From an uncultured Rhodobacterales bacterium (GTDB taxonomy: Bacteria > Pseudomonadota > Alphaproteobacteria > Rhodobacterales > Rhodobacteraceae), in contig CAYGPT010000001.1 of the NCBI GenBank assembly GCA_964351755.1, positions 95,474 to 159,473 on the forward strand: a stretch of DNA of 64,000 bases, in the 5' to 3' direction. A model generated the notes under the pieces. That model ran no database searches, was not told the origin of the DNA, and saw nothing but the letters and a program-made list of their open reading frames with translations. The translations under genes were made by a program, and so were the position numbers. Shown here piece by piece: positions 6,280-61,526 of this stretch (the first letter of the stretch is position 1; every line of letters starts with the position of its first letter).

Positions 6280-7982
6280 AACCTCATGTCTATGCCATCC
6301 GGCGCGATAGCCAGGCGGGATGATAATTGTCCGGGAGCGGTTGGAGTGTCCAAAGACGGGATGTCTTCGATGTTTTGTACCGATGGGTCTGGCTTGTTTT
6401 CGCTGGCGTCATCCGCTGCCTGATCACCTTGACCGAAGGAAAATGAAATGTCCTCGTAGCCCATGTCCGCAAAGGATTTCCCGAGATCGTCGATATTTCG
6501 GCGCATCAGGTCGAGTGTATCCTGGCGGTCCGCAAGGATGTTGACAGTTATCCCTGCGTCCGACGCACTCAGCACCATGCGAACACGACCCAGTTCAACC
6601 GGGTTCAGCGCGATTTCGACGGACTTGTCAGACGTTCGCCTGACCGCTTCGGCGATCTGATGGGCTACGCTGGTTGCCATGTCGTTTCGCGGCGCATGCA
6701 CGTTCGCGGTTGCGCCGGTGATCGACAGTGTCGGGCGCAAATCAAAACCCATTTCATCCACCGCTTGGGACAACAGCGGGCTGGTGTCGCCAGTTATTTT
6801 GTCTTGCCCAAAAGTTGGAGGTCCTGCGCTCACCTTGATTGGAACAAGGGGAAGGCCTTTTGGTTGCATACCCGTACGGGTTGAGTCATCTGATTGGCCC
6901 TCGGAAATCGCTGAGGTTTGAGCAAGCCTGGGCTGCTGTATCCCATCTTCAAATTTGATCGGGCCTGACACCACGAAATTGGGACGCTCCCCATCCCGGG
7001 CATTCGCGATCAAAGTCGGGGCATGTCCACCAAGGTGGCGTTCCAGCATGGAAAGTTGTGCCACATCTTTGGGTTTGCTGATGTTTCTGGTCTTGTTGTC
7101 AAACCCGGGGAGTGGCCGTTGGTCCCACCCAAGCCCCTCGGCACCACCATGATTTGGCCTGCGAGGCCTGTTTCCCAAGCGGCCCGGCTCCAGGCTAGTG
7201 CCAATTGCGAGACCAGACGGTTGAATGTCAGTCGTCATTTTCACTGAGGTAACCGTGACGGCGGAGTCAATCGCGTCTGTTCGCCCGAACTGTGGGGCAG
7301 ACCTGATATGTCGCAGCACATCCGAGGTTGGCAAAACAGTGCTATTGAAAGCATTTCCATTTTGTATGTCTCGTGTGTTGGCCTGCGTTTTTGGGCCTGC
7401 AGATATCGGGGCATGCAGCGTTCCTGATTGCAGGATCACCCTGGAATTGCTGCCAGATTTAGTTTGTGCATGGTCAGCGTGCACGTTGCGGATTGGCAAC
7501 CTGGAAACATCGACTTGTTCTGGTGTGCCGCGATGCGTAACGCGAGGTGCCTGGCCAAGTGAAACATTTGGCTCCGAAGTCTTTGCTTCGGGCACTCGAC
7601 GGCTAGGGTCATCTTTGAACCCAATGCGGGGCGCGCTTGCGGATTCAACCGGCATTCCGACGGAGACTTCGGTTTGACTGGGTTTTGTCATCGCGACTTC
7701 GTCGCCATCCGTTTTCGCACCATCCGCAGCAGGCAATTTCCCGGGACCATCATCGCGTGTTTCGCGGATCGCCTCGGAGGCTTTTGGAAAAGTGTCAACG
7801 GTGGTCTCACCTTTTCGCGTGTCGTTCGGTGTATTGGCAACCAGTGCACCAAAGACATCGCCGAACGCATTTCCTTCTCCCTCTGTCCTATCGCGGTCCG
7901 CCACTGTGCTGGCAGGTTCTGTTGATTTGGGCAGGCTCGACAAAACAGTCAGGTTCATTCGGGTCTCCGGGATTTCTTCCAC
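6276..7982 (-). CDS. fliK: Flagellar hook-length control protein FliK
   Basis: Low-complexity P/S/T/G-rich body and a C-terminal Flg_hook-type domain (VEIALNPVELGRVRMVLSASDAGITVNILADRQDTLDLMRRNIDDL). The start is GTG 7982 or ATG 7958; the ATG has a GGAGA RBS. Confidence 0.75.
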   Translation of the reverse strand: MEEIPETRMNLTVLSSLPKSTEPASTVADRDRTEGEGNAFGDVFGALVANTPNDTRKGETTVDTFPKASEAIRETRDDGPGKLPAADGAKTDGDEVAMTKPSQTEVSVGMPVESASAPRIGFKDDPSRRVPEAKTSEPNVSLGQAPRVTHRGTPEQVDVSRLPIRNVHADHAQTKSGSNSRVILQSGTLHAPISAGPKTQANTRDIQNGNAFNSTVLPTSDVLRHIRSAPQFGRTDAIDSAVTVTSVKMTTDIQPSGLAIGTSLEPGRLGNRPRRPNHGGAEGLGWDQRPLPGFDNKTRNISKPKDVAQLSMLERHLGGHAPTLIANARDGERPNFVVSGPIKFEDGIQQPRLAQTSAISEGQSDDSTRTGMQPKGLPLVPIKVSAGPPTFGQDKITGDTSPLLSQAVDEMGFDLRPTLSITGATANVHAPRNDMATSVAHQIAEAVRRTSDKSVEIALNPVELGRVRMVLSASDAGITVNILADRQDTLDLMRRNIDDLGKSFADMGYEDISFSFGQGDQAADDASENKPDPSVQNIEDIPSLDTPTAPGQLSSRLAIAPDGIDMRF

Positions 7983-25139: not shown

Positions 25140-26008
25140 CACGCGACGTTCTGCTTTGCGGCCTTCAACGCTTCTTCCAGCTCCGCGAAAGACGGGCGGC
25201 AATGTGAAGGTGTATTCTGGCGTCCGACTTCGATACAGATATTGGTCGCGTGGTTATGAAGATTGGCCACCAAAACCTCCCGGATAAGCTGGTAAAAATG
25301 CGCGTCCTCTTCCACCACCGCCTTGACCTTCGACGCGAACGGGCCGACTAGACCGTAGGCAAGGAAGACCCCAAGAAAGGTGCCAACCAGAGCGCCACCA
25401 ATCAGCTTACCGAGGACTTCTGGCGGTTGGTCGATCGAAGCCATCGTCTTGATCACCCCCAAAACCGCCGCGACGATTCCCAAAGCAGGCAACCCGTCGG
25501 CGACGGTTTGCAACGCATGGCTTGAATGCAGCGCGTGATGCATGTTCGCATCAATCCGTTTTTCAAGGACTTCCTCGACTTGATGCGGGTCATCGTAGTT
25601 CATGGATGCCGAGCGCATGGTGTCGCAAATCAACGCAACAGCCTCTTTGTCCTCGATAATTTTGGGATACCGGGAGAAGATGGAAGAGTTTTCCGGGTCT
25701 TCTATGTGCTCTTCGATGGCGACCGGATTCTGGCGGGCGAGGCGGATCAGTTCGAACAAGAGGCACAGCAGGTCTTTGTAATCTTCATGCGCCCACTTTG
25801 GGCCCTTGAAGACTTTGCCAATGTCCTTGGCGGTATGTTTGACTTCGGAAATCGAGTTGCTGATTAGGAATGCACCGATGGCAGCGCCAAGGATCATCGT
25901 CATTTCGAACGGCAAGGATTTGAGGATGATCCCCATCTTACCACCGGCGGCAAGGTAGCCGCCAAAGACCATGACAAAAATAGTGATGATTCCGATAATG
26001 CCGATCAT
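25139..26008 (-). CDS. motA: Flagellar motor stator protein MotA
   Basis: 289 aa of the MotA/TolQ/ExbB channel family (MIGIIGIITIFVMVFGGYLAAGG..., PALGIVAAVLGVIKTM, GALVGTFLGVFLAYG). Confidence 0.9.
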   Translation of the reverse strand: MIGIIGIITIFVMVFGGYLAAGGKMGIILKSLPFEMTMILGAAIGAFLISNSISEVKHTAKDIGKVFKGPKWAHEDYKDLLCLLFELIRLARQNPVAIEEHIEDPENSSIFSRYPKIIEDKEAVALICDTMRSASMNYDDPHQVEEVLEKRIDANMHHALHSSHALQTVADGLPALGIVAAVLGVIKTMASIDQPPEVLGKLIGGALVGTFLGVFLAYGLVGPFASKVKAVVEEDAHFYQLIREVLVANLHNHATNICIEVGRQNTPSHCRPSFAELEEALKAAKQNVA

Positions 26009-26075
26009 GAAAGGCGTCCCTTTTCAGTTTGGTTGGCAGTTTTGCAGACTTCCGTTAACAGAGGTGGCCCTGCTG

Positions 26076-26687
26076 TCAGCTTTTCGGCGCTTTGGCATTT
26101 CGACCTGCAAGGATTGCGCTGATCGAATAGGCTGCTTGCGGATCAAGGTCCGACATGATCTTGGCAGCTACGTCCGGACGCATACGCGCCAAGAATCCCG
26201 CCGCGAATTCCGGTTCCATCGCCTCGAACAGGGGGGCAGCATCCTTGGCCTTCATGTTCTCGTAAACCGTCGTCAATCGCGCAATGTCGTCTTCGGCAGC
26301 AGTTTCGGCGTGTGCAAGGGTTGCGCTCAGGCGTATTTCGGCCTGTTCAAGGGCGTCTAGCCGCCTTTCGATTTCAACTTGCGCTACGTCCAACGCCTTG
26401 GCGCGCACGCCCAATTCCGTTTCCCGTTCTGCGACGCGCGTTTCGCGTTGCCTTAAAGCATCCAAGAGCGACTGGATCTGGGTGTGATCAACGGGTGCGG
26501 GTGTTTTATGTGCTTCTGCGTTCCGGGCAGGCAAGAGCAATTGGTTTGCAAGCCCTACCTCTGCAACCGCCGCTCCGGCACCGGTGGCCACGCGCAGTAT
26601 TGCGGAACCGACCAACAGTGTTGAAATTAACAGGATCGACCCACGCCCGGAAGCGAACCCCTTGGTTTTGCGCTTCTGTCCCATCAT
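26076..26687 (-). CDS. MotE-like (MgtE_N-type) flagellar motility protein
   Basis: N-terminal TM/signal segment, a coiled coil, and a C-terminal motif TTVYENMKAKDAAPLFEAMEPEFAAGFLARMRPDVAAKIMSDLDP typical of the MotE/COG3334 family. Confidence 0.55.
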   Translation of the reverse strand: MMGQKRKTKGFASGRGSILLISTLLVGSAILRVATGAGAAVAEVGLANQLLLPARNAEAHKTPAPVDHTQIQSLLDALRQRETRVAERETELGVRAKALDVAQVEIERRLDALEQAEIRLSATLAHAETAAEDDIARLTTVYENMKAKDAAPLFEAMEPEFAAGFLARMRPDVAAKIMSDLDPQAAYSISAILAGRNAKAPKS

Positions 26688-27061
26688 TTCGCCCCCGCTG
26701 CACGGCGCGTGAACATCGGTTCCGTGCCCGTCTGTGCCTGTGTTGCCGACTGCACTGTTTTGGGTTTTTGCGGTGGTGAAGGAATATCGTGGAGAGAGGC
26801 CATTTGCAGTTCCAGTTGCTGTGCAGTCTGCTCGGCGCGTGACGTCAACTGCTCCAGCGTTTCTGTTGATTCTGCAGCCGTTTTTTGCGCGGCGGCCAGC
26901 ATCTTGCTAAGGTCGTCAACCTGAGCGGAAAGCACCGCCACGGCACCGCCAACCCCCGTTTCAAGGTTGTTGAACCGGTTCAGGCGTCGCCCAAGAACGA
27001 AACAGTAAAAACCGGCGCCAATAGCCCCCGCAGCCAGGAGAATGTCAGCTATCAAATCCAT
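26684..27061 (-). CDS. Small membrane-anchored coiled-coil protein of unknown function
   Basis: 125 aa with one N-terminal TM helix (LIADILLAAGAIGAGFYCFVL), then a coiled coil. The stop overlaps the start of the motE-like gene. Confidence 0.6.
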   Translation of the reverse strand: MDLIADILLAAGAIGAGFYCFVLGRRLNRFNNLETGVGGAVAVLSAQVDDLSKMLAAAQKTAAESTETLEQLTSRAEQTAQQLELQMASLHDIPSPPQKPKTVQSATQAQTGTEPMFTRRAAGAK

Positions 27062-27070
27062 ATCTCACCT

Positions 27071-27598
27071 TCAATTCAGCACAAATTCCATGATCAGCAG
27101 ATCGTTTACACGGCCGGGACCAGCCACGACTTGCACTCGGCGCAACAGCTGCGCACGCAGCCGCGTCATCGCGGCCGGACTGTCGATATCCCGTGTTTCG
27201 AGCGCGCGCAGATATCCGTTCAAAACATCCACAACCCGGGGCAACAGGGTTTCCACGTCCCCTGCATATTGCGACGGGACTTCCAGTTGCGCGCGAAACC
27301 TCAAGTGGCGCCCTTGCGAGGCGGGGCTGAGGGATACGGTCATCGGCTCAACCGGAACAAATGCGACATCCGGTAAAGCATCTGGCTGCGCGTCATCTTC
27401 GACGACTTGATCGGAGGATTCGGAGGCCAGAATCAGGCCCGAAAAGGTGGCATAAAACCCTCCGCCGCCGCCCGCCAAGGCGGCGACAATGCCAAGGATC
27501 ATAGGCACTTTCGATGATTTCCTGGCCTCTTGCGGGGCATCTGCCACGGCGTCCGTCATTTTCATTCCATCTGCTGATGTCAAAATCTGTTTTGGCAC
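27071..27598 (-). CDS. fliL: Flagellar basal-body-associated protein FliL (paralog 2)
   Basis: TM helix followed by the FliL core (FVPVEPMTVSL...RHLRFRAQLEV...LLPRVVDVLNGYL...IMEFVLN). The start is GTG 27598 or ATG 27565. Confidence 0.75.
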   Translation of the reverse strand: MPKQILTSADGMKMTDAVADAPQEARKSSKVPMILGIVAALAGGGGGFYATFSGLILASESSDQVVEDDAQPDALPDVAFVPVEPMTVSLSPASQGRHLRFRAQLEVPSQYAGDVETLLPRVVDVLNGYLRALETRDIDSPAAMTRLRAQLLRRVQVVAGPGRVNDLLIMEFVLN

Positions 27599-54297: not shown

Positions 54298-55044
54298 ATG
54301 CAAAACAGCCCCTTCGCTCCGACGATCCGCTCTGTTGGCCTGAACGGCCTGCTGGTCACCTTCGGAGATTCCGCAACGGATGCCGCCAACCGGGCCGCTA
54401 TCGCCTTTCGCAGCGCGGTGGATGATCAGGACTGGCCCGAAATCGCGGAAAGTAGCAGCACGTTGGTGTCCGCCTTTTTCCGTGTAGACTTGTCCGAGCA
54501 TCGCTTTGACGACCTTCGGGCACGGATGGATGCGGTTCTGCAGAAACGGGACTGGACCGATGCGACCTTGCCTACGGGCCGTTCGCTCTGGACGATTCCG
54601 GCTGTTTTCGGCGGCGACCGCGCCCCGCAACTGGCCGAAGCGGCGGACGCTGCCGGGCGGACCGAGGCCGAAGCCGAGGCAGACCTGACATCCGCCCGTT
54701 TGCGCGTGCTGACCTTGGGTTTTGCCCCCGGTCAGCCCTATCTGGGCACGCTGGGCGAGGCATGGGACATTCCGCGCCAAGTGGGTTTGTCCCCCAATAT
54801 CCCTGCAGGCGCGCTGGTTGCGGCCGTGCGCCAGATTTGCCTGTTCACCAAGGATACGCCGACCGGATGGCGACATGTGGGTCAATCCGCGTTCGCCTGT
54901 TTCAGACCGCAAAGCGACACGTCCTTTCCCCTGTCACCGGGGGACGAGGTGCAGTTCACATCCATCAGCGCCAAGGAACTGGCCCGCATCGAAGCACACA
55001 ATGCCGACGGGTCTGGTGGGGCTGTGCGCGAGGTGCTGGAATGA
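54298..55044 (+). CDS. pxpB: 5-oxoprolinase subunit B (KipI/allophanate hydrolase subunit 1 family)
   Basis: 248 aa with the typical motif FAPGQPYLG. Followed by pxpC and pxpA. Confidence 0.8.
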   Translation: MQNSPFAPTIRSVGLNGLLVTFGDSATDAANRAAIAFRSAVDDQDWPEIAESSSTLVSAFFRVDLSEHRFDDLRARMDAVLQKRDWTDATLPTGRSLWTIPAVFGGDRAPQLAEAADAAGRTEAEAEADLTSARLRVLTLGFAPGQPYLGTLGEAWDIPRQVGLSPNIPAGALVAAVRQICLFTKDTPTGWRHVGQSAFACFRPQSDTSFPLSPGDEVQFTSISAKELARIEAHNADGSGGAVREVLE

Positions 55045-56063
55045 GGGGCCTGCGCGCGCTTCAGGCTGGACCAGCAATAGCGCTGCAGGACCTCGGGCGG
55101 CCCGGATTTCTGGCCAAGGGCTTGACCCGTGGCGGGGCTGCCGATGTGCTGGCTGTGCATGAAGGTGCCGCGCTGCTGCGTCAGGACGCGTCAATGGCCG
55201 TTCTGGAAATGGTCGGCACAGGTGGTGTGTTCGAAGCGACCGAGGATGTGCGCGTCGCGTTCACCGGTGCCGTGATGACCGCGCAGATTGACGGCGGTGC
55301 ATTGGCGTGGAACGCAAGCCACACCTTGACCAAGGGCGCAAAGCTGACCATCGGGCCGACGCGGTCGGGCACCTACGGCTATCTGCATGTAGGCGGCGGG
55401 TTCGCGACCGAACCCACACTGGACTCGCGCGCGGCACACCTGTCTGTTGGCCTTGGCGGACTTTTGCAGAAGGGCGATGTACTGCCTATAGGTTCGGACA
55501 TGGGCAAGGACGTCGGCATGAAGCTGTCACCCGATGCACGCCTATCGGGTGGCACGGTGCGTATCGTACCCAGCATGCAGACCAATGATTTTGAAAAGGA
55601 TATCCGGGCACGTTTCGTGGCGACGGAATTCCGCCGAGACCCGCGCGCCAACCGTCAGGGCGTGCGCATGGACAGCGACGGCGACGGGTTTTCCAACCCC
55701 AAGGCGCTCAGCATAGTGAGCGAAGTGATCGTGCCCGGCGATATTCAGATCACCGGAGATGGCACGCCTTTTGTGCTTATGGCGGAATGTCAGACGACAG
55801 GGGGTTATCCCCGGATTGGCACAGTCTTGCCCTGTGATCTGCCGCGCGTGGCGCAGGCCGCTGCCGGGGCGCTCATCCGGTTCCAGTTTGTCACGCTTGA
55901 CGAGGGGGCGGCCATTCAGGCCCGGGCCAGTGCAGAGATGCGCAAGCTTCCCGGTACGGTGACGCCCCTTGTGCGAGATCCTGCGACGATGCAGGATTTG
56001 CTGAGTTACCAATTGGTCGGTGGTGTGGTCTCGGCCACAGCGCCGACCGTGGAAGAAGGATGA
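55041..56063 (+). CDS. pxpC: 5-oxoprolinase subunit C (KipA/allophanate hydrolase subunit 2 family)
   Basis: ATG 55041 overlaps the pxpB stop. Motifs LQDLGRPGF and QTTGGYPRIG. Confidence 0.8.
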   Translation: MRGLRALQAGPAIALQDLGRPGFLAKGLTRGGAADVLAVHEGAALLRQDASMAVLEMVGTGGVFEATEDVRVAFTGAVMTAQIDGGALAWNASHTLTKGAKLTIGPTRSGTYGYLHVGGGFATEPTLDSRAAHLSVGLGGLLQKGDVLPIGSDMGKDVGMKLSPDARLSGGTVRIVPSMQTNDFEKDIRARFVATEFRRDPRANRQGVRMDSDGDGFSNPKALSIVSEVIVPGDIQITGDGTPFVLMAECQTTGGYPRIGTVLPCDLPRVAQAAAGALIRFQFVTLDEGAAIQARASAEMRKLPGTVTPLVRDPATMQDLLSYQLVGGVVSATAPTVEEG

Positions 56064-56070
56064 TGGGTTG

Positions 56071-56838
56071 ATGCAAGTCGATCTGAACGCCGATATGGGC
56101 GAAAGCTTTGGCCCCTGGACCATGGGCGACGATGCGGCCCTGCTGAACACGGTGACATCCGCCAACATCGCCTGTGGCGCGCACGCGGGCGACGGCGATG
56201 TGATGGCTGCGACCATGGGTATCGCACTGGCTAAGGGTGTCGGCATCGGGTCGCATCCCGGTTTTGCCGACATTCAGGGCTTTGGCCGGCGGCGCATCGA
56301 CATGCCACTGAAATCCTTGCAGAATTCGATCCGCTGTCAGGTAGGGGCGAGCTTTGGGATGGCCCGCGCCTTGGGGGCCGAGGTGCACCATGTCAAGCTG
56401 CATGGCGCCTTGGGCAACATGACCTCCGAGGACGAAGCTATGGCGCGCGGCTGTTTCGAGGCAGCGCTGTCGGTGCTGCCTGACGCGATCATCATGGTGC
56501 TGGCAGCAACCGCGCAGGAACGCGCGGTACGCAGTCTGGGCGCGCGGTTTGCCTGCGAGATTTTCGCCGACCGCGCCTATAACGCGGATGCAACACTGGT
56601 AGACAGACGCAAGCCCGGCGCGGTGATCCACGATGCAGAACTGGCCGGGCGACGCATGGTCGAGATGGTCAAGGCCCAAGCCATCATCACCGAGGACGGC
56701 ACACGGATCGAGACCCCGATCGACAGCATCTGCTGCCATGGCGACACGCCCGAAGCGGTCGGGATCGCGGCCACTGTACGCCAGATGCTTGAGGGTGAGG
56801 GGATCACCGTCAGGACCTTTGACGGACGGTCGGGATGA
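56071..56838 (+). CDS. pxpA: 5-oxoprolinase subunit A (LamB/YcsF family)
   Basis: The N-terminus VDLNADMGESFG...ANIACGAHAGD is the LamB/YcsF hallmark. Confidence 0.9.
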   Translation: MQVDLNADMGESFGPWTMGDDAALLNTVTSANIACGAHAGDGDVMAATMGIALAKGVGIGSHPGFADIQGFGRRRIDMPLKSLQNSIRCQVGASFGMARALGAEVHHVKLHGALGNMTSEDEAMARGCFEAALSVLPDAIIMVLAATAQERAVRSLGARFACEIFADRAYNADATLVDRRKPGAVIHDAELAGRRMVEMVKAQAIITEDGTRIETPIDSICCHGDTPEAVGIAATVRQMLEGEGITVRTFDGRSG

Positions 56839-57075: not shown

Positions 57076-59049
57076 TCAGACCAGATCGGCGTCGGTCATG
57101 ATCTCGACCAGTGCGGGGCCGTCCACATCCAATGCCTTCTGCAACGCCGCCTCGATGTCGCCCGAGTGCGCTACCTTTTCCCCATGCGCCCCGCAAATCT
57201 TGGCAAAGGCGGCAAAGGACGGGTTGTGCAGGTCAGTCTCCCACACCGGCCATTCACCGGATCGCTGCTCCTTTGAAATCTTGCCAAGCTCGCCGTTGTG
57301 CAAAAGCACGTGGGTGATGTCCATGCCGTATTTCACGGCCGTCGTCAGTTCCATCGCGTATTGCCCGAACCCGCCATCGCCCGAGATCGAGATGACCTTC
57401 CGCCCTTTTAGCCAATCGAAGTCCTGACAGGCGGCCCACGCTCCCATCGCCGCCGGAAATCCGAAGCCGATGGAGCCGAGATAGCCCGACATCAGCACCC
57501 GCTGCCCTTTGGTTTCGAAATAGCGGCCAAAGGAATAGGTGTTGTTTCCCACATCCACCGCGATGATCGCATCGGACGGAGCGACCCGTGATAACGCGTC
57601 GAAGACTGCGACCGCGTGGATGCCCTTGGCCGTTTGTTCGCCCAGTCTTGTCCGTTTTTCCGCGCGCCATATGTCCCAACGTCCAACCAACTCGCCGATC
57701 TGGTCGGCGCTGTCCGGGGGACGCTTGATCTGTGGGGCAACGGCGGCGCAGAAGGCTCCGATTTCGGCCCAGATAGGCAGGGCAACGGCGTGGAATTTGC
57801 CCAGTTGCATACGTTCGTAATCGACCTGGATGATCGGCTTTTTCGGCGCGATCCCTGTGTGGTTTGAAAAGGATGTGCCAAGGGTCAGGATCAGGTCAGC
57901 CTCGTTCATGAACCAGCTTGCGATTGGGGTGCCCGATCGGCCCAACACGCCTGCCGCGTTGGGGTGATCATCCGCGATCAGCCCTTTGCCTTTAAACGTG
58001 GTCAAAACGGGTGCGCCAAGGTCGACTGCCAGTGCCGTGATCGCCGTCATATGATCCCACGCGCCGTGCCCGACGACGATGATCGGGCGCTTGGCCGCGT
58101 TCAGCAATTCAAGCGCATCTGCCACATCCGCGTCAGACGGTTTCATCACCGCCCTGCCCATCCGCCCGTCGGGCGCACTGGCGGGTTTGTCGGACGGGTT
58201 GGTCTGCATGTCGTCGGGAAAGATAAGGTGCGCCACGTCCTGTTCCACCAGCGCATTCTTCATCGCAAGTGAGACGATTTCGGAGTGATTGGATGTGGAC
58301 AGCACAGTCTGGCTGAACCGGGTGACGGCGGCGAAGGCCGAGGCAAGATCAATGTCCTGAAAGGCGCCGGGGCCGAACACTTGCGTCTGGACCTGACCCG
58401 TCAGCGCCAGCACTGGCGCGCGGTCCACCTTGGCATCCCACAGCCCGGTCAGCAGGTTGGTCGCACCGGGTCCAGCAATGGTCAAGCAGGCAGCAGGATG
58501 GCCGGTCAGCTTGCCGTAGGCCGAGGCGGCGAAAGCAGCAGCACCCTCGTGGCGAATACCGACATATTTCATCTCTCCTGCTTCAACACGCATCCGTATG
58601 GCGTCAGCCAGTCCAAGGTTCGAGTGACCAACCATGCCGAACACGTGGCGGATACCCCAGTTGACCATGCTTTCGGCCATCTGGTCGCTGACTGTGCGCT
58701 GATGTTCAGGCTCTGGTTCAAGGCCGACGAAAATCTCGTCCCCTTCGATTTTCACGGGATAGATATCCTGCCCGCTATCCTCGTGCCCGCCGGGTGGCTT
58801 GCCTGTGAGGGGATCGAAATCCCAGCCGTGCCACGGGCAGCGGATCCAACACTTTCCGCCCTCGCCGCGCTCGATCGAACCTTCGCCCAACGGTCCGCGC
58901 TGGTGCGGGCAGTGGTTGTTCATCGCAGCCCATTGTCCGTCGAAATGCGACAGGCAGATTGAGGTCGTGCGAGCGGTCACGGTCTTGACGCGCCCCTCTG
59001 GCAAGTCGCCTGTGTGTCCGACACTGATCCAGTCGAGGTTGTCCATCAT
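57076..59049 (-). CDS. Rieske [2Fe-2S] domain fused to a thiamine-pyrophosphate enzyme (acetolactate synthase/pyruvate oxidase-like)
   Basis: Rieske ligands CPH...CPWH in aa 1-110. TPP_N/M/C architecture with GDGGFGQY-X-LLHNG (GDG-X24-27-NN type). The ATGATG start overlaps the upstream stop. Confidence 0.85.
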   Translation of the reverse strand: MMDNLDWISVGHTGDLPEGRVKTVTARTTSICLSHFDGQWAAMNNHCPHQRGPLGEGSIERGEGGKCWIRCPWHGWDFDPLTGKPPGGHEDSGQDIYPVKIEGDEIFVGLEPEPEHQRTVSDQMAESMVNWGIRHVFGMVGHSNLGLADAIRMRVEAGEMKYVGIRHEGAAAFAASAYGKLTGHPAACLTIAGPGATNLLTGLWDAKVDRAPVLALTGQVQTQVFGPGAFQDIDLASAFAAVTRFSQTVLSTSNHSEIVSLAMKNALVEQDVAHLIFPDDMQTNPSDKPASAPDGRMGRAVMKPSDADVADALELLNAAKRPIIVVGHGAWDHMTAITALAVDLGAPVLTTFKGKGLIADDHPNAAGVLGRSGTPIASWFMNEADLILTLGTSFSNHTGIAPKKPIIQVDYERMQLGKFHAVALPIWAEIGAFCAAVAPQIKRPPDSADQIGELVGRWDIWRAEKRTRLGEQTAKGIHAVAVFDALSRVAPSDAIIAVDVGNNTYSFGRYFETKGQRVLMSGYLGSIGFGFPAAMGAWAACQDFDWLKGRKVISISGDGGFGQYAMELTTAVKYGMDITHVLLHNGELGKISKEQRSGEWPVWETDLHNPSFAAFAKICGAHGEKVAHSGDIEAALQKALDVDGPALVEIMTDADLV

Positions 59050-60656
59050 GTCGGTCCTCCAAACGCTACACCCGAAATCTCGGACATGTCCTTTTTCCAT
59101 GTTGTCAGATCGTCTGCGTTGAACTTGTTCAGGTGATCGTGGCCGCAGGCACGAGCCATGACCTGCATCAATTCGGTGCTTGCCTCGAAAAAATTAGCCA
59201 GTTGGCGGGCGGATTTTTCGACGATAATGCGGCTGACCAGATGCGGCTTCTGGCTGGCGATCCCAACGGGGCAATTGTTGGTGTGACATGCCCGCATGGC
59301 GATGCAGCCGATGGCCTGCATGGCCGAATTGGACAGCGCGATGGCATCCGCACCCAGTGCCAGTGCCTTGACGAAATCTGCCGGTTTGCGCAGGCCACCA
59401 GTGATGACAAGGCTGATATCATTGCGTTCCAGCCGATCCAGGTGAGCCCGCGCCCGCGCCAAAGCCGGGATCGTCGGCACAGAGATATTGTCGCGAAAGA
59501 TGATGGGCGCCGCACCCGTCCCGCCACCACGTCCGTCGAGGATGATATAGTCCACCCCGACCTTGAGGGCTGCGTCGATGTCTTTTTCGATATGTTGCGC
59601 GCTAAGTTTGTAACCGATGGGGATACCACCGGTGCGGTCGCGTACTTCGTCGGCGAACTCCTTGATTTGCTCGGGATCTGTCCAATCCGGGAACCGCGCG
59701 GGCGAGATCGCGTCCTCGCCTTCGTTCAGCCCTCGCACCTCCGCAATCTTGGCGTTTACCTTGTGCCCGGGCAAATGGCCGCCCGTGCCAGTCTTGGCCC
59801 CCTGACCACCCTTGAAGTGGAACGCCTGAACCTTGGCCACCTTGTCCCACGAAAACCCGAACCGGGCCGAGGCGAGTTCGTAGAAGTATTTCGAATTGGC
59901 CTCCTGCTCTTCGGGCAACATGCCGCCTTCACCCGAACAGATGCCTGTTCCGGCCAGTTCCGCACCGCGGGCCAATGCCACCTTGGCGGGTTCGGACAAA
60001 GCGCCGTAGGACATGTCGGAAACAAACAATGGGATGTCGAGGCGCAGGGGTTTTTGCGCGTTCGGGCCGATGATGACCTCGGTGCCCACGGCCTCATCAT
60101 CCAGCAGCGGGGGCTTGTGCAGTTGCGCGGTCAGAATCTGGATATCGTCCCAGTCCGGAAGCGTATGTCGCGGCACGCCCATTGCGTCGACCTTGCCGTG
60201 ATGGCCGGTCTTGGACAGGCCGTCGCGGGCATATTGCTGGATCAGGCCATTATAGGGTTCTTCCTCGGTTCCGTGGGATGTGTCGGCATAGAGTCCGAGA
60301 TAGGCATTGCGATTGAAAGGTTGCGGATTGTCATGCGCCCACGCGGCGATTTCGTCGCCATCAACGCAGATATCGTCCCCCTCGCGCCAGCTTTTGAACT
60401 TTGGCAGCGCCTCGTCATTTGCATATTCGCTGACACCGCTGTCGAGCCTGTAATCCCAGTCATGCACACCACAGATCAGGTTGTTGCCTCGCACAAACCC
60501 GTCCGACATGAGCGCGCCGCGATGCAGGCAGCGGCCATAAAAGACCGACACGTCGTCGTCGAGCCTGACCACGACCAGATCGACCTCTCCGACGATGGCG
60601 TAGGCAGGGATGCGGTCCTCAAGAGCCGAAAGTTGCGCGACAATTTCTTTTTTCAT
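59046..60656 (-). CDS. Rieske [2Fe-2S] domain fused to an FMN-dependent glutamate-synthase-like (GltB domain 2) enzyme
   Basis: Rieske ligands CLH-X16-CGVH in aa 1-100. GltS FMN-domain motifs (DMSYGALS, LDGRGGGTGAAP). ATG 60656. Confidence 0.85.
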   Translation of the reverse strand: MKKEIVAQLSALEDRIPAYAIVGEVDLVVVRLDDDVSVFYGRCLHRGALMSDGFVRGNNLICGVHDWDYRLDSGVSEYANDEALPKFKSWREGDDICVDGDEIAAWAHDNPQPFNRNAYLGLYADTSHGTEEEPYNGLIQQYARDGLSKTGHHGKVDAMGVPRHTLPDWDDIQILTAQLHKPPLLDDEAVGTEVIIGPNAQKPLRLDIPLFVSDMSYGALSEPAKVALARGAELAGTGICSGEGGMLPEEQEANSKYFYELASARFGFSWDKVAKVQAFHFKGGQGAKTGTGGHLPGHKVNAKIAEVRGLNEGEDAISPARFPDWTDPEQIKEFADEVRDRTGGIPIGYKLSAQHIEKDIDAALKVGVDYIILDGRGGGTGAAPIIFRDNISVPTIPALARARAHLDRLERNDISLVITGGLRKPADFVKALALGADAIALSNSAMQAIGCIAMRACHTNNCPVGIASQKPHLVSRIIVEKSARQLANFFEASTELMQVMARACGHDHLNKFNADDLTTWKKDMSEISGVAFGGPT

Positions 60657-60854
60657 TTCATCGTTCCGAATGACTGTTTTGTTGCAAGTTTGCACACGCG
60701 AACCGATAACGCACTTCACAATTGTCCGTGTGAGTGGGTTCTAGAGGGTGTGGGCGCCAGAAGCACAGGAATGCCGCGTGTCCGGCCAAAAAGGTTTGCT
60801 TGCAAAGTACGTTTCGCTGACTACCTGAGGAGTCAGACCTGCAGGAGCTCGACC

Positions 60855-61526
60855 ATGGAACTTAACGCCGACTTTTCCGAAGATGTGCGCATCGCCTATG
60901 AGGACAATCCATGGCGATCGTCGCCTGGCGCCGGAGTCGAACGCAAGATGCTGGACCGGATCGGAGACGAGGTGGCGCGCGCCACCACTATCGTGCGCTT
61001 TGCCCCCGGCAGCGCCTTTGCTGCGCACACTCATGACGGCGGAGAAGAATACGTGGTGCTGGACGGCGTATTTCAGGACGAAGAGGGCGATTTCCCCGTT
61101 GGCACTTATGTACGCAATCCGCCTACATCGCGGCACACGCCAAGTTCGGAGCCAGGGGCCACGATTTTCGTTAAGCTATGGCAGTTCGATCCCGAGGACC
61201 GCGAGCATGTACGCATCGACATGAACGCTGCCGACACCACCCCGGACGTGTCCCGCACGGGGGTCGAAACCGCCACGCTGTTCAAGGATGCGCGTGAACA
61301 TGTGCGTCTTGAGGTCTGGACCGGGGGCACGCAGCACGTGTTTACCGCGCCGGAAGGGGCCGAGGTGCTTGTGTTGGACGGCGCGATCAGCGCGGGCGAG
61401 GATCAGATGGTGTCGCGTGACTGGTTGCGTCTTGCGCCCGGATCAAAGCGGATGCTGTCAGCTGGAAAAGACGGCGCGCGGTTGTGGGTCAAGACGGGGC
61501 ACCTCAAGCACATTGTCGATCGCTAG
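60855..61526 (+). CDS. Bicupin/ChrR-like cupin domain protein
   Basis: 223 aa. Cupin motif FAAHTHDGGEEYVVLDG...VRNPPTSRHTP. It lacks an N-terminal anti-sigma zinc domain. Only the 3' part of the 797-aa ORF-track entry is credible. Confidence 0.7.
   Translation: MELNADFSEDVRIAYEDNPWRSSPGAGVERKMLDRIGDEVARATTIVRFAPGSAFAAHTHDGGEEYVVLDGVFQDEEGDFPVGTYVRNPPTSRHTPSSEPGATIFVKLWQFDPEDREHVRIDMNAADTTPDVSRTGVETATLFKDAREHVRLEVWTGGTQHVFTAPEGAEVLVLDGAISAGEDQMVSRDWLRLAPGSKRMLSAGKDGARLWVKTGHLKHIVDR

Follow-up and report, generated by a model that had tools for sequence, protein, structure and literature searches.

Overlapping genes for a Rieske–glutamate synthase-like and a Rieske–pyruvate oxidase-like protein in a roseobacter belong to a shuffled and conserved gene module

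We examined two adjacent genes, here called G and T, on the minus strand of a 64,000-nucleotide stretch of DNA (the window) from an uncultured Rhodobacterales bacterium (assembly GCA_964351755.1, contig CAYGPT010000001.1, positions 95,474 to 159,473). Coordinates are those of the window throughout, and the features are collected in Table 1. Both products begin with a Rieske [2Fe-2S] domain, which in G is fused to a flavin mononucleotide (FMN) domain of the glutamate synthase (GltS) type and in T to a thiamine diphosphate (TPP) enzyme. The genes lie in open reading frames (ORFs) spanning 59046-60719(-) and 57076-59100(-). Read from the minus strand, their junction is catgATGATGgac, in which an ATG (59049-59047), the TGA that stops G (59048-59046) and a second ATG (59046-59044) follow one another. 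Since this TGA sits inside the minus-strand ATGATG, the ATGA overlap is real, as a preliminary description made from the sequence and its ORFs had stated. The G protein is 93% identical to the T. armeniaca protein, and the host is a Tateyamaria-like roseobacter.

Table 1. Features of the G-T locus in window coordinates.
Feature	Positions	Strand	Description or basis
Gene G	59046-60656	-	MKKEIV start at 60656; 536 residues; Rieske + GltS-type FMN/[3Fe-4S] 'synthase' domain
G Rieske [2Fe-2S] domain, residues ~1-105	60342-60656	-	Pfam; ligand codons C43, H45, C62, H65 at 60462-60530
G FMN (alpha/beta)8 Glu_synthase domain, residues 194-505	59142-60077	-	Pfam; C451-x5-C457-x4-C462 triad at 59271-59306
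Gene T	57076-59049	-	MMDNL start at 59049; 657 residues; Rieske + PoxB/POX-like TPP enzyme
T Rieske domain, residues ~1-115, and EPEPEHQ linker	58705-59049	-	Pfam; ligand codons C47, H49, C71, H74 at 58828-58911
T TPP domains	57100-58695	-	Pfam: TPP_enzyme_N 58345-58695, TPP_enzyme_M 57742-58125, TPP_enzyme_C 57100-57555
ATGA overlap, G stop / T start	59046-59049	-	junction read from the minus strand
Divergent intergenic spacer, 198 nucleotides	60657-60854	.	presumed promoter region of the G-T operon
ChrR-type bicupin, outside the conserved module	60855-61526	+	two Cupin_7 stretches

Both fusions score above the Pfam cut-offs, and all of the motifs quoted for them in the preliminary description are present. 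In G, the Rieske match covers residues 8-77 (39.7 bits, cut-off 20.3) and the Glu_synthase match covers residues 194-505 (306.9 bits). The motif CLH-x16-CGVH supplies the cluster ligands C43, H45, C62 and H65, and DMSYGALS and GRGGGTGAAP are also found. The four ligands are 98-99% conserved in 82 sequences and invariant in nine homologs at 37-68% identity; in a 27-sequence alignment, H65 is conserved to at least 90% and the other three do not vary. The best relatives of G in the PDB are the large chains of GltS (7MFM, 1EA0 and 1LLW, E 1e-28 to 1e-32), matched over the FMN domain only. Cys451, Cys457 and Cys462 align exactly with Cys1102, Cys1108 and Cys1113 of the Azospirillum GltS, which are the [3Fe-4S] ligands, and this triad is 99% conserved (82 sequences). 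Also kept are QGAK, GG(H)LPG, R308 and GGTGA(A)P, which correspond in the alignment to the synthase site of GltS. Regarding the other parts of GltS, no GATase_2 or GXGXG match was found by Pfam, the Glu_syn_central match (15.8 bits) is under its cut-off, and G scores 131 bits against the GltB equivalog NF008730, the cut-off of which is 1047. We found no literature match for the GltS residues Lys972, Arg992 and Glu903, and our claims about the substrate site of G stop at the conserved motifs.

In T, the Rieske match covers residues 7-85 (59.5 bits), and TPP_enzyme_N, _M and _C each score 112-116 bits. The motifs CPH..CPWH, with the ligands C47, H49, C71 and H74, and GDGGFGQY..LLHNG are found. 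These ligands do not vary in 57 sequences or in a set of 19 that takes in a lineage at 61% identity, and the same set keeps the catalytic glutamate (E168 in RHEGAA) and G557-D-G-G..N585 without exception. Conservation of the Cys and His ligands in orthologs, on which the preliminary description had staked its claim, holds down to 37% identity for G and 61% for T. The best PDB match of T is Escherichia coli PoxB (3EY9/3EYA, E 7e-64, about 30% identity, residues 118-652 of T against 3-527 of PoxB), followed by POX, PQO and ALS enzymes. Among the NCBIfam models, those of pyruvate oxidase and pyruvate dehydrogenase come out on top, all far under their cut-offs (for example, 372 bits against a cut-off of 742 for the POX model NF006377, and 301 against 792 for the PoxB model NF006591). 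The middle domain (TPP_enzyme_M, 116 bits) has conserved VVGHGA and DLILTLGT stretches. T ends five residues past the PoxB-aligned region, at about PoxB residue 532. The lipid-activation helix of PoxB comprises residues 558-568 (PMC7245740), so T stops before it and lacks it.

The surroundings of G place the pair in a larger set of genes. Among species-representative genomes, a scan recovered at least 507 relatives of G, and the locus analysis covers the best 80 of these. They are 81-93% identical to G, in Rhodobacterales, Hyphomicrobiales and further alphaproteobacterial loci alike, and come nearly all from marine Alphaproteobacteria, among them Rhodobacterales, Roseibium/Stappia/Labrenzia, Ahrensia, Parvibaculaceae and Pelagibius. 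In 56 of the 80 loci, G has a T ortholog (70-91% identity) no more than 8 kb away, either directly downstream or past a 2.4-kb insert. Clustering of the ORFs gave five recurrent families: G (80 loci), T (56), F (38), U (37) and X (32). In the insert of locus L014, F is a 351-residue protein with a Ferric_reduct transmembrane domain and a C-terminal Rieske domain, and U is a 253-residue protein without a Pfam family. X is a 427-residue transporter of the Na_H_Exchanger (CPA) family, which stands directly upstream of G in 32 loci (e.g. L052:3534-4817); this linkage is tight and holds even at loci without T, F or U. The families occur in the orders XGTFU (12 loci), XGFUT (9), GFUT (11), GT (15, the arrangement of the host locus), XGT (4) and XG (6), with G alone in 15, and the orders FUGT, GTFU and TGF are also found. 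The ATGA overlap recurs in the nearest relatives and a few further loci (L001-L008, L041, L075 and L077), and other loci have a gap of 10-50 nucleotides or the F-U insert in its place. The G-T pair is thus one part of a larger module with a variable gene order, X-G-[F-U]-T, and a linkage that outlasts rearrangement speaks for a functional tie. Median pairwise identity across the loci drops stepwise from G (82%) through T (75%), X (60%) and F (58%) to U (47%), and G is unusually conserved for a protein common to several orders.

At lower identity the pairing is found in part of the family. A G protein of another lineage, 68% identical, also has a Rieske-TPP gene adjacent, and Rieske-GltB proteins of about 40% identity (e.g. 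that of Candidatus Endoriftia) have none. As side observations, the T-G pair of a distant lineage stands beside a full prokaryotic ubiquitin-like set at L094:9936-16942 (YukD, ThiF/E1, JAB, Prok-RING, UQ_con/E2 and FHA). In Candidatus Endoriftia persephone, the Riftia symbiont, the 41%-identical Rieske-GltB gene (L098:8001-9863) occurs without T, F or U, and a gene for a small stand-alone CDGSH protein converges on it.

The phyletic pattern was read from 201 genomes of Rhodobacterales, almost all with a completeness of 90% or more. Rieske-G is present in 23, a paralog of G with a CDGSH module (CDGSH-G) in 13, T in 18 and F in 22. All 18 T-positive genomes have G, as Rieske-G in 17 and as CDGSH-G directly adjacent to T in one, and F is present in 16 of them. 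Together with the linkage in 56 of the 80 loci, this bears out the earlier expectation that G and T co-occur elsewhere. Rieske-G occurs without T in five or six of the 201 genomes. Searching the rest of five genomes with a T-less G locus for T, F and U, we found F-U and T elsewhere in two, together in one genome and about 70 kb apart in the other. In Ruegeria arenilitoris (L046; G004:C4:100362-101939), decayed fragments of T (residues 4-118, 210-292, 517-561 and 561-657, with TGA stops) and of U (149-252) lie beside an intact X-G, and no F was found in this genome; T, F and U are in decay there, and X-G is retained. In summary, the dependence runs from T to G and not the other way, and F-U forms a semi-autonomous unit.

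The N-terminal module of G is exchangeable. Across the family of proteins with a GltS-type FMN domain, the N-terminal module may be a Rieske domain, tandem CDGSH, Fer4_19+CDGSH(+Rieske), rubredoxin+CCG or 4Fe-4S+GXGXG. Because it is interchangeable, this module is better read as an electron port than as a part of the catalytic site. The paralog CDGSH-G (P0126-P0128) shares about 70% identity with G in the FMN domain, with a tandem CDGSH [2Fe-2S] module replacing the Rieske domain; in genome G139 (C6:3353-4579) it stands directly upstream of a T gene. Since G occurs without T and has such close paralogs, it is not dependent on T.

The features of F and U suggest a membrane path. F scores 45.7-46.7 bits for Ferric_reduct, and its H89 and H101 on one helix and H171 and H184 on another, at spacings of 12 and 13, are invariant in 38 sequences; the ferric-reductase-domain superfamily has this pattern as its di-haem signature. 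A positively charged stretch, KERRRD, just precedes the Rieske domain of F, which is therefore predicted to be cytoplasmic. The Rieske domain of T is 32% identical to that of F (E 2e-19) and 23% identical to that of G, and the T and F domains are of the same subtype. U has a positive N-terminus (an N-in anchor), one transmembrane helix and an invariant C-x3-C...H-x2-C-x3-C motif, and is predicted to be a membrane-anchored periplasmic protein of no known family. Its AlphaFold model (pLDDT 83) shows tandem OB-like beta-barrels; a fold search with this model gave no PDB match at E <= 0.001, only weak tandem OB-fold-like rows, and its matches in the ESM Atlas are limited to unnamed or 'DUF5666' clusters. 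In the host genome, F (74% identity) and U (70%) form a pair with ATGA coupling outside the window, on contig C4 at about 25406-27285 (L081:8407-10286). X and the family f32 were not found in the host genome by tblastn, an absence that an assembly 95% complete leaves unproven. CPA2 transporters are known to pair with flavoproteins, as KefC does with KefF, and X-G may be a comparable pair. Around the host F-U pair, we also note a divergent OpuAC/permease/ATPase transporter of the glycine-betaine ABC type and, about 3 kb downstream, a gene for a pyridoxal phosphate enzyme of Cys/Met metabolism.

From the observed domain make-up, ligand conservation, gene linkage and phyletic pattern, we infer as follows which cofactors G, T, F and U probably bind, on which substrates they act, which way the electrons flow and which of the proteins touch. 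Tentatively, and with somewhat less than even confidence, we take G and T to be cytoplasmic Fe-S flavoenzymes of one module, in which the Rieske domains serve as one-electron ports that most likely exchange electrons with F-U. T would probably catalyse the oxidative decarboxylation of a 2-oxoacid. Because the C-terminal lipid-binding helix of PoxB is absent, its electrons would leave through the Rieske domain, tethered on the Pro/Glu-rich EPEPEHQ linker, and not directly to a membrane quinone. In GltS, electrons pass from ferredoxin or the beta subunit to the [3Fe-4S] cluster (-280 mV) and on to FMN (-240 mV) (PMC8097209). G may be wired as Rieske <-> [3Fe-4S] <-> FMN, with the fused Rieske domain in place of the ferredoxin or beta subunit, and would probably oxidize or reduce the C=N / C-N bond of a 2-oxo or amino (di)carboxylate. 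F, as a six-helix, four-His cytochrome b with its own cytoplasmic Rieske domain, is the most likely partner of both enzymes; with the Cys-rich periplasmic U, it would carry electrons into or across the membrane and is the likely sink. A complex prediction with full-length G and residues 1-118 of T gave an ipSAE of 0.00, which is uninformative about binding either way. The dedicated electron relay proposed in the preliminary description thus stands as the natural reading of the Rieske fusions, but not as a closed two-protein system, since F, U and often X belong to the set too.

G and T might also act in sequence, with G oxidizing an amino acid to its 2-oxoacid and T decarboxylating the 2-oxoacid to a carboxylate and CO2. 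Such a line would explain why T never occurs without G but G occurs without T; this asymmetry fits a structural dependence of T on G equally well. In its full form, G, T, F and U (with X) would make up a hitherto unrecognised line that feeds membrane or extracytoplasmic redox chemistry independently of NAD(P) and CoA, in which the four electrons released pass from Rieske to Rieske to the NOX-like di-haem protein and reduce quinone or U, the latter as a Cys/His redox protein of a new periplasmic kind. G-T-F-U would then be a bacterial 'metabolite oxidase' resembling NADPH oxidase in its build, with Rieske domains replacing the FAD/NADPH module; we consider this full form unlikely.

Several observations weigh against the proposed exchange of electrons with F-U. 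F-U occurs without G or T in five of the 22 F-positive genomes, in unrelated neighbourhoods, and in three genomes of this kind F and U stand together with no common neighbour genes. Two T-positive genomes lack F, and Ahrensia marina and a Boseongicola metagenome-assembled genome have G but none of T, F and U. The units can thus occur apart: G-T does not require F-U, and F-U is not confined to G-T. T-positive genomes come from just six of 85 genera, and the co-occurrence counts are descriptive and not statistical, because the genomes are related and not independent. The chemistry assigned to T is also affected. Phe465 of PoxB, described as promoting electron transfer from TPP to FAD (PMC7245740), aligns with K590, a lysine that is invariant in T orthologs. 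Together with the equivalog scores under the cut-offs, this means that the chemistry of T may differ from that of PoxB, and the only indications that T may bind FAD are the conserved GxG and DxxxxxGT stretches of its middle domain.

An alternative, which we regard as unlikely, is that T and G form a closed relay. It takes up the suggestion of the preliminary description that oxidative decarboxylation by T is coupled to reductive amination by G, which is one of several possibilities. T would oxidize pyruvate or another 2-oxoacid and pass the electrons from Rieske to Rieske to G, which would reduce an imine (e.g. 2-iminoglutarate from 2-oxoglutarate and ammonia). The pair would then amount to a glutamate-synthase-like reductive aminase driven by a 2-oxoacid and independent of NAD(P)H and ferredoxin, with F-U as an optional overflow. 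By textbook potentials, the decarboxylation of a 2-oxoacid yields a sufficiently strong reductant. The ATGA coupling suggests equal production of G and T, T is never found without G in the 201 genomes, and G retains the motifs aligned with the GltS synthase site, a [3Fe-4S]/FMN site that is physiologically reductive (PMC8097209). However, G occurs in genomes that lack T, F and U, and also with CDGSH for its Rieske domain, so other partners must serve it; it has no glutaminase, central or GXGXG domain and falls far below the GltB cut-off; the Rieske domain of T resembles that of F and not that of G; and F-U sits between G and T in 21 loci. A closed relay explains less well the solitary G, its swappable Fe-S module and the insertion of F-U than does the exchange of electrons with F-U that we favour.

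Somewhat less probable still is that G and T catalyse unrelated reactions under a shared regulator or with a generic redox partner, and that they lie side by side because they are co-regulated or were transferred horizontally together as a 'redox island', without forming a complex or serving one pathway. X-G, F-U and T do occur as units in many orders and apart, the flanking genes vary between lineages, and the distant Rieske-GltB proteins have no T nearby. Against this stand the invariable company of T with G (18 of 18 genomes), an adjacency that holds at 68% identity in another lineage and also with CDGSH-G, and the joint decay of T and U beside an intact X-G in Ruegeria arenilitoris; three Rieske-ported enzymes in one cluster are also hard to ascribe to chance. 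Finally, it is very improbable that the Rieske domains, instead of carrying catalytic electrons, act as sensors of redox state, iron, O2 or NO that control non-redox activities, with T as an ALS-like carboligase or lyase holding a structural FAD and G perhaps gating the adjacent CPA transporter as the flavoprotein KefF modulates KefC: the lysine at the Phe465 position, the non-redox FAD that ALS-family enzymes keep, the KefF/KefC precedent and the CPA antiporter directly upstream of G in 32 of the 80 loci, some of them without T, F and U, speak for it, but G keeps a complete [3Fe-4S] and FMN electron path, the N-terminal module in its family is always an electron-transfer Fe-S domain, F joins a like Rieske domain to a predicted di-haem transmembrane electron wire, and T is closest to the redox-active POX/PoxB and not to ALS.

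The genes around the pair gave no further guide to its pathway. The product of 60855-61526 is a bicupin because two Cupin_7 stretches were matched, and it is divergently transcribed across a spacer of the length given in the preliminary description. It lies outside the conserved module: its synteny is confined to the Tateyamaria-like nearest relatives (L001 and L004-L006), and in L036 and L073 the bicupin gene is distant. A consensus scan found no sigma-70-like site in the spacer, and consensus promoter and terminator scans of the spacer and of the region downstream of T gave nothing meaningful. In the closest relatives (L001 and L004-L006, about 7346-7906), a TetR-family gene stands between the bicupin and G; it is missing from the window, and tblastn found no copy elsewhere in this genome, the assembly of which is 95% complete. 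On the other side, pxpB/C/A-like 5-oxoprolinase genes (CT_A_B, LamB/YcsF; 54298-56838, plus strand) converge on the 3' end of T. Glutamate is the product of 5-oxoprolinase. The synteny of these pxpABC-like genes is restricted to the closest relatives (L001-L008), and we rejected them as pathway clues, together with the bicupin, a UDP-glucose-dehydrogenase-like gene and a xylose-isomerase-like TIM gene, since synteny was seen in the closest relatives only.

If the exchange of electrons with F-U that we favour is right, the module would let abundant marine heterotrophs drain electrons in a new way, out of the metabolism of 2-oxoacids or amino acids and into the membrane or periplasm. A function would also follow for the new periplasmic family U and for the uncharacterised 'glutamate synthase-related' and CDGSH type 5 proteins. 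To our knowledge, Rieske-to-Rieske relays from soluble enzymes to a cytochrome b of the ferric-reductase type have not been described. G and T are present in cultured Roseibium, Roseobacter and Tateyamaria and the whole module in Roseibium, so the model is directly testable.

We compared each component with its closest known system. The textbook electron partners are quinone for enzymes of the PoxB type and ferredoxin or a beta subunit for those of the GltS type; here, enzymes of both types have a covalent Rieske port, and a third Rieske fusion, to a putative di-haem membrane protein, accompanies them. T resembles PoxB (3EY9/3EYA; also POX, CidC and PQO) in its three-domain TPP core (N, middle and C), its catalytic glutamate and its GDGG..N motif. 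It differs by the added N-terminal Rieske domain on a Pro/Glu-rich linker, the missing lipid-activation helix and the replacement of Phe465 by an invariant lysine, and it would presumably pass its electrons to a protein-bound Fe-S cluster and not to a membrane quinone. G shares with the GltS alpha subunit and ferredoxin-GltS (1EA0, 2VDC, 7MFM and 1OFD) the (alpha/beta)8 FMN domain, the C-x5-C-x4-C triad and the QGAK, GGxLPG, ISP and GGTGA(A/S)P motifs; however, the glutaminase, central and GXGXG domains are missing and the fused Rieske domain replaces the ferredoxin or beta subunit as electron partner. F is like MsrQ (YedZ) of MsrPQ and the NOX/FRE ferric-reductase superfamily in its six-helix Ferric_reduct domain, four invariant histidines on two helices and cytoplasmic termini. 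Its donor module is a Rieske domain, whereas NOX uses FAD/NADPH and MsrQ a flavin reductase or quinol, and its coupled periplasmic partner is U and not the molybdoenzyme MsrP.

Two further families resemble G. Some JGI records name G homologs as the N-methylglutamate synthase subunit MgsC, which is likewise a stand-alone FMN domain of the GltS type. MgsC, however, works with MgsA (glutaminase-like) and MgsB (GXGXG) and has no Rieske domain. No mgsA or mgsB gene is adjacent to G, which neighbours T and the bicupin here and X, F and U elsewhere; no genome-wide mgsAB search was made. The type 5 CDGSH proteins, which combine tandem CDGSH with the glutamate-synthase FMN domain (Lin et al., 2011, PMC3174974; also PMC5859297), are closer: they share 67-70% identity with G in the FMN/[3Fe-4S] domain, and they occur in the same Rhodobacterales, in 13 of 201 genomes. 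Their N-terminal module is tandem CDGSH and not Rieske, and they are likewise functionally uncharacterised. An architecture of ferric-reductase domain and Rieske (+FMN) was drawn, without a function, as model M4 by Zhang et al. (2013, PMC3591440). As the preliminary description had suspected, no characterised system of the G-T composition appears in the searchable literature, where we found no functional study of the module and only mentions of domain architecture (PMC3591440, PMC3174974 and PMC5859297). Thus, the parts fall by their sequences into known superfamilies (POX/PoxB, the GltS synthase domain, the ferric-reductase domain/MsrQ and Rieske), and none of them shows every feature that defines the characterised enzymes. 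The module is widespread, strongly conserved and uncharacterised; its components are known, and their proposed wiring is a new variation on them.

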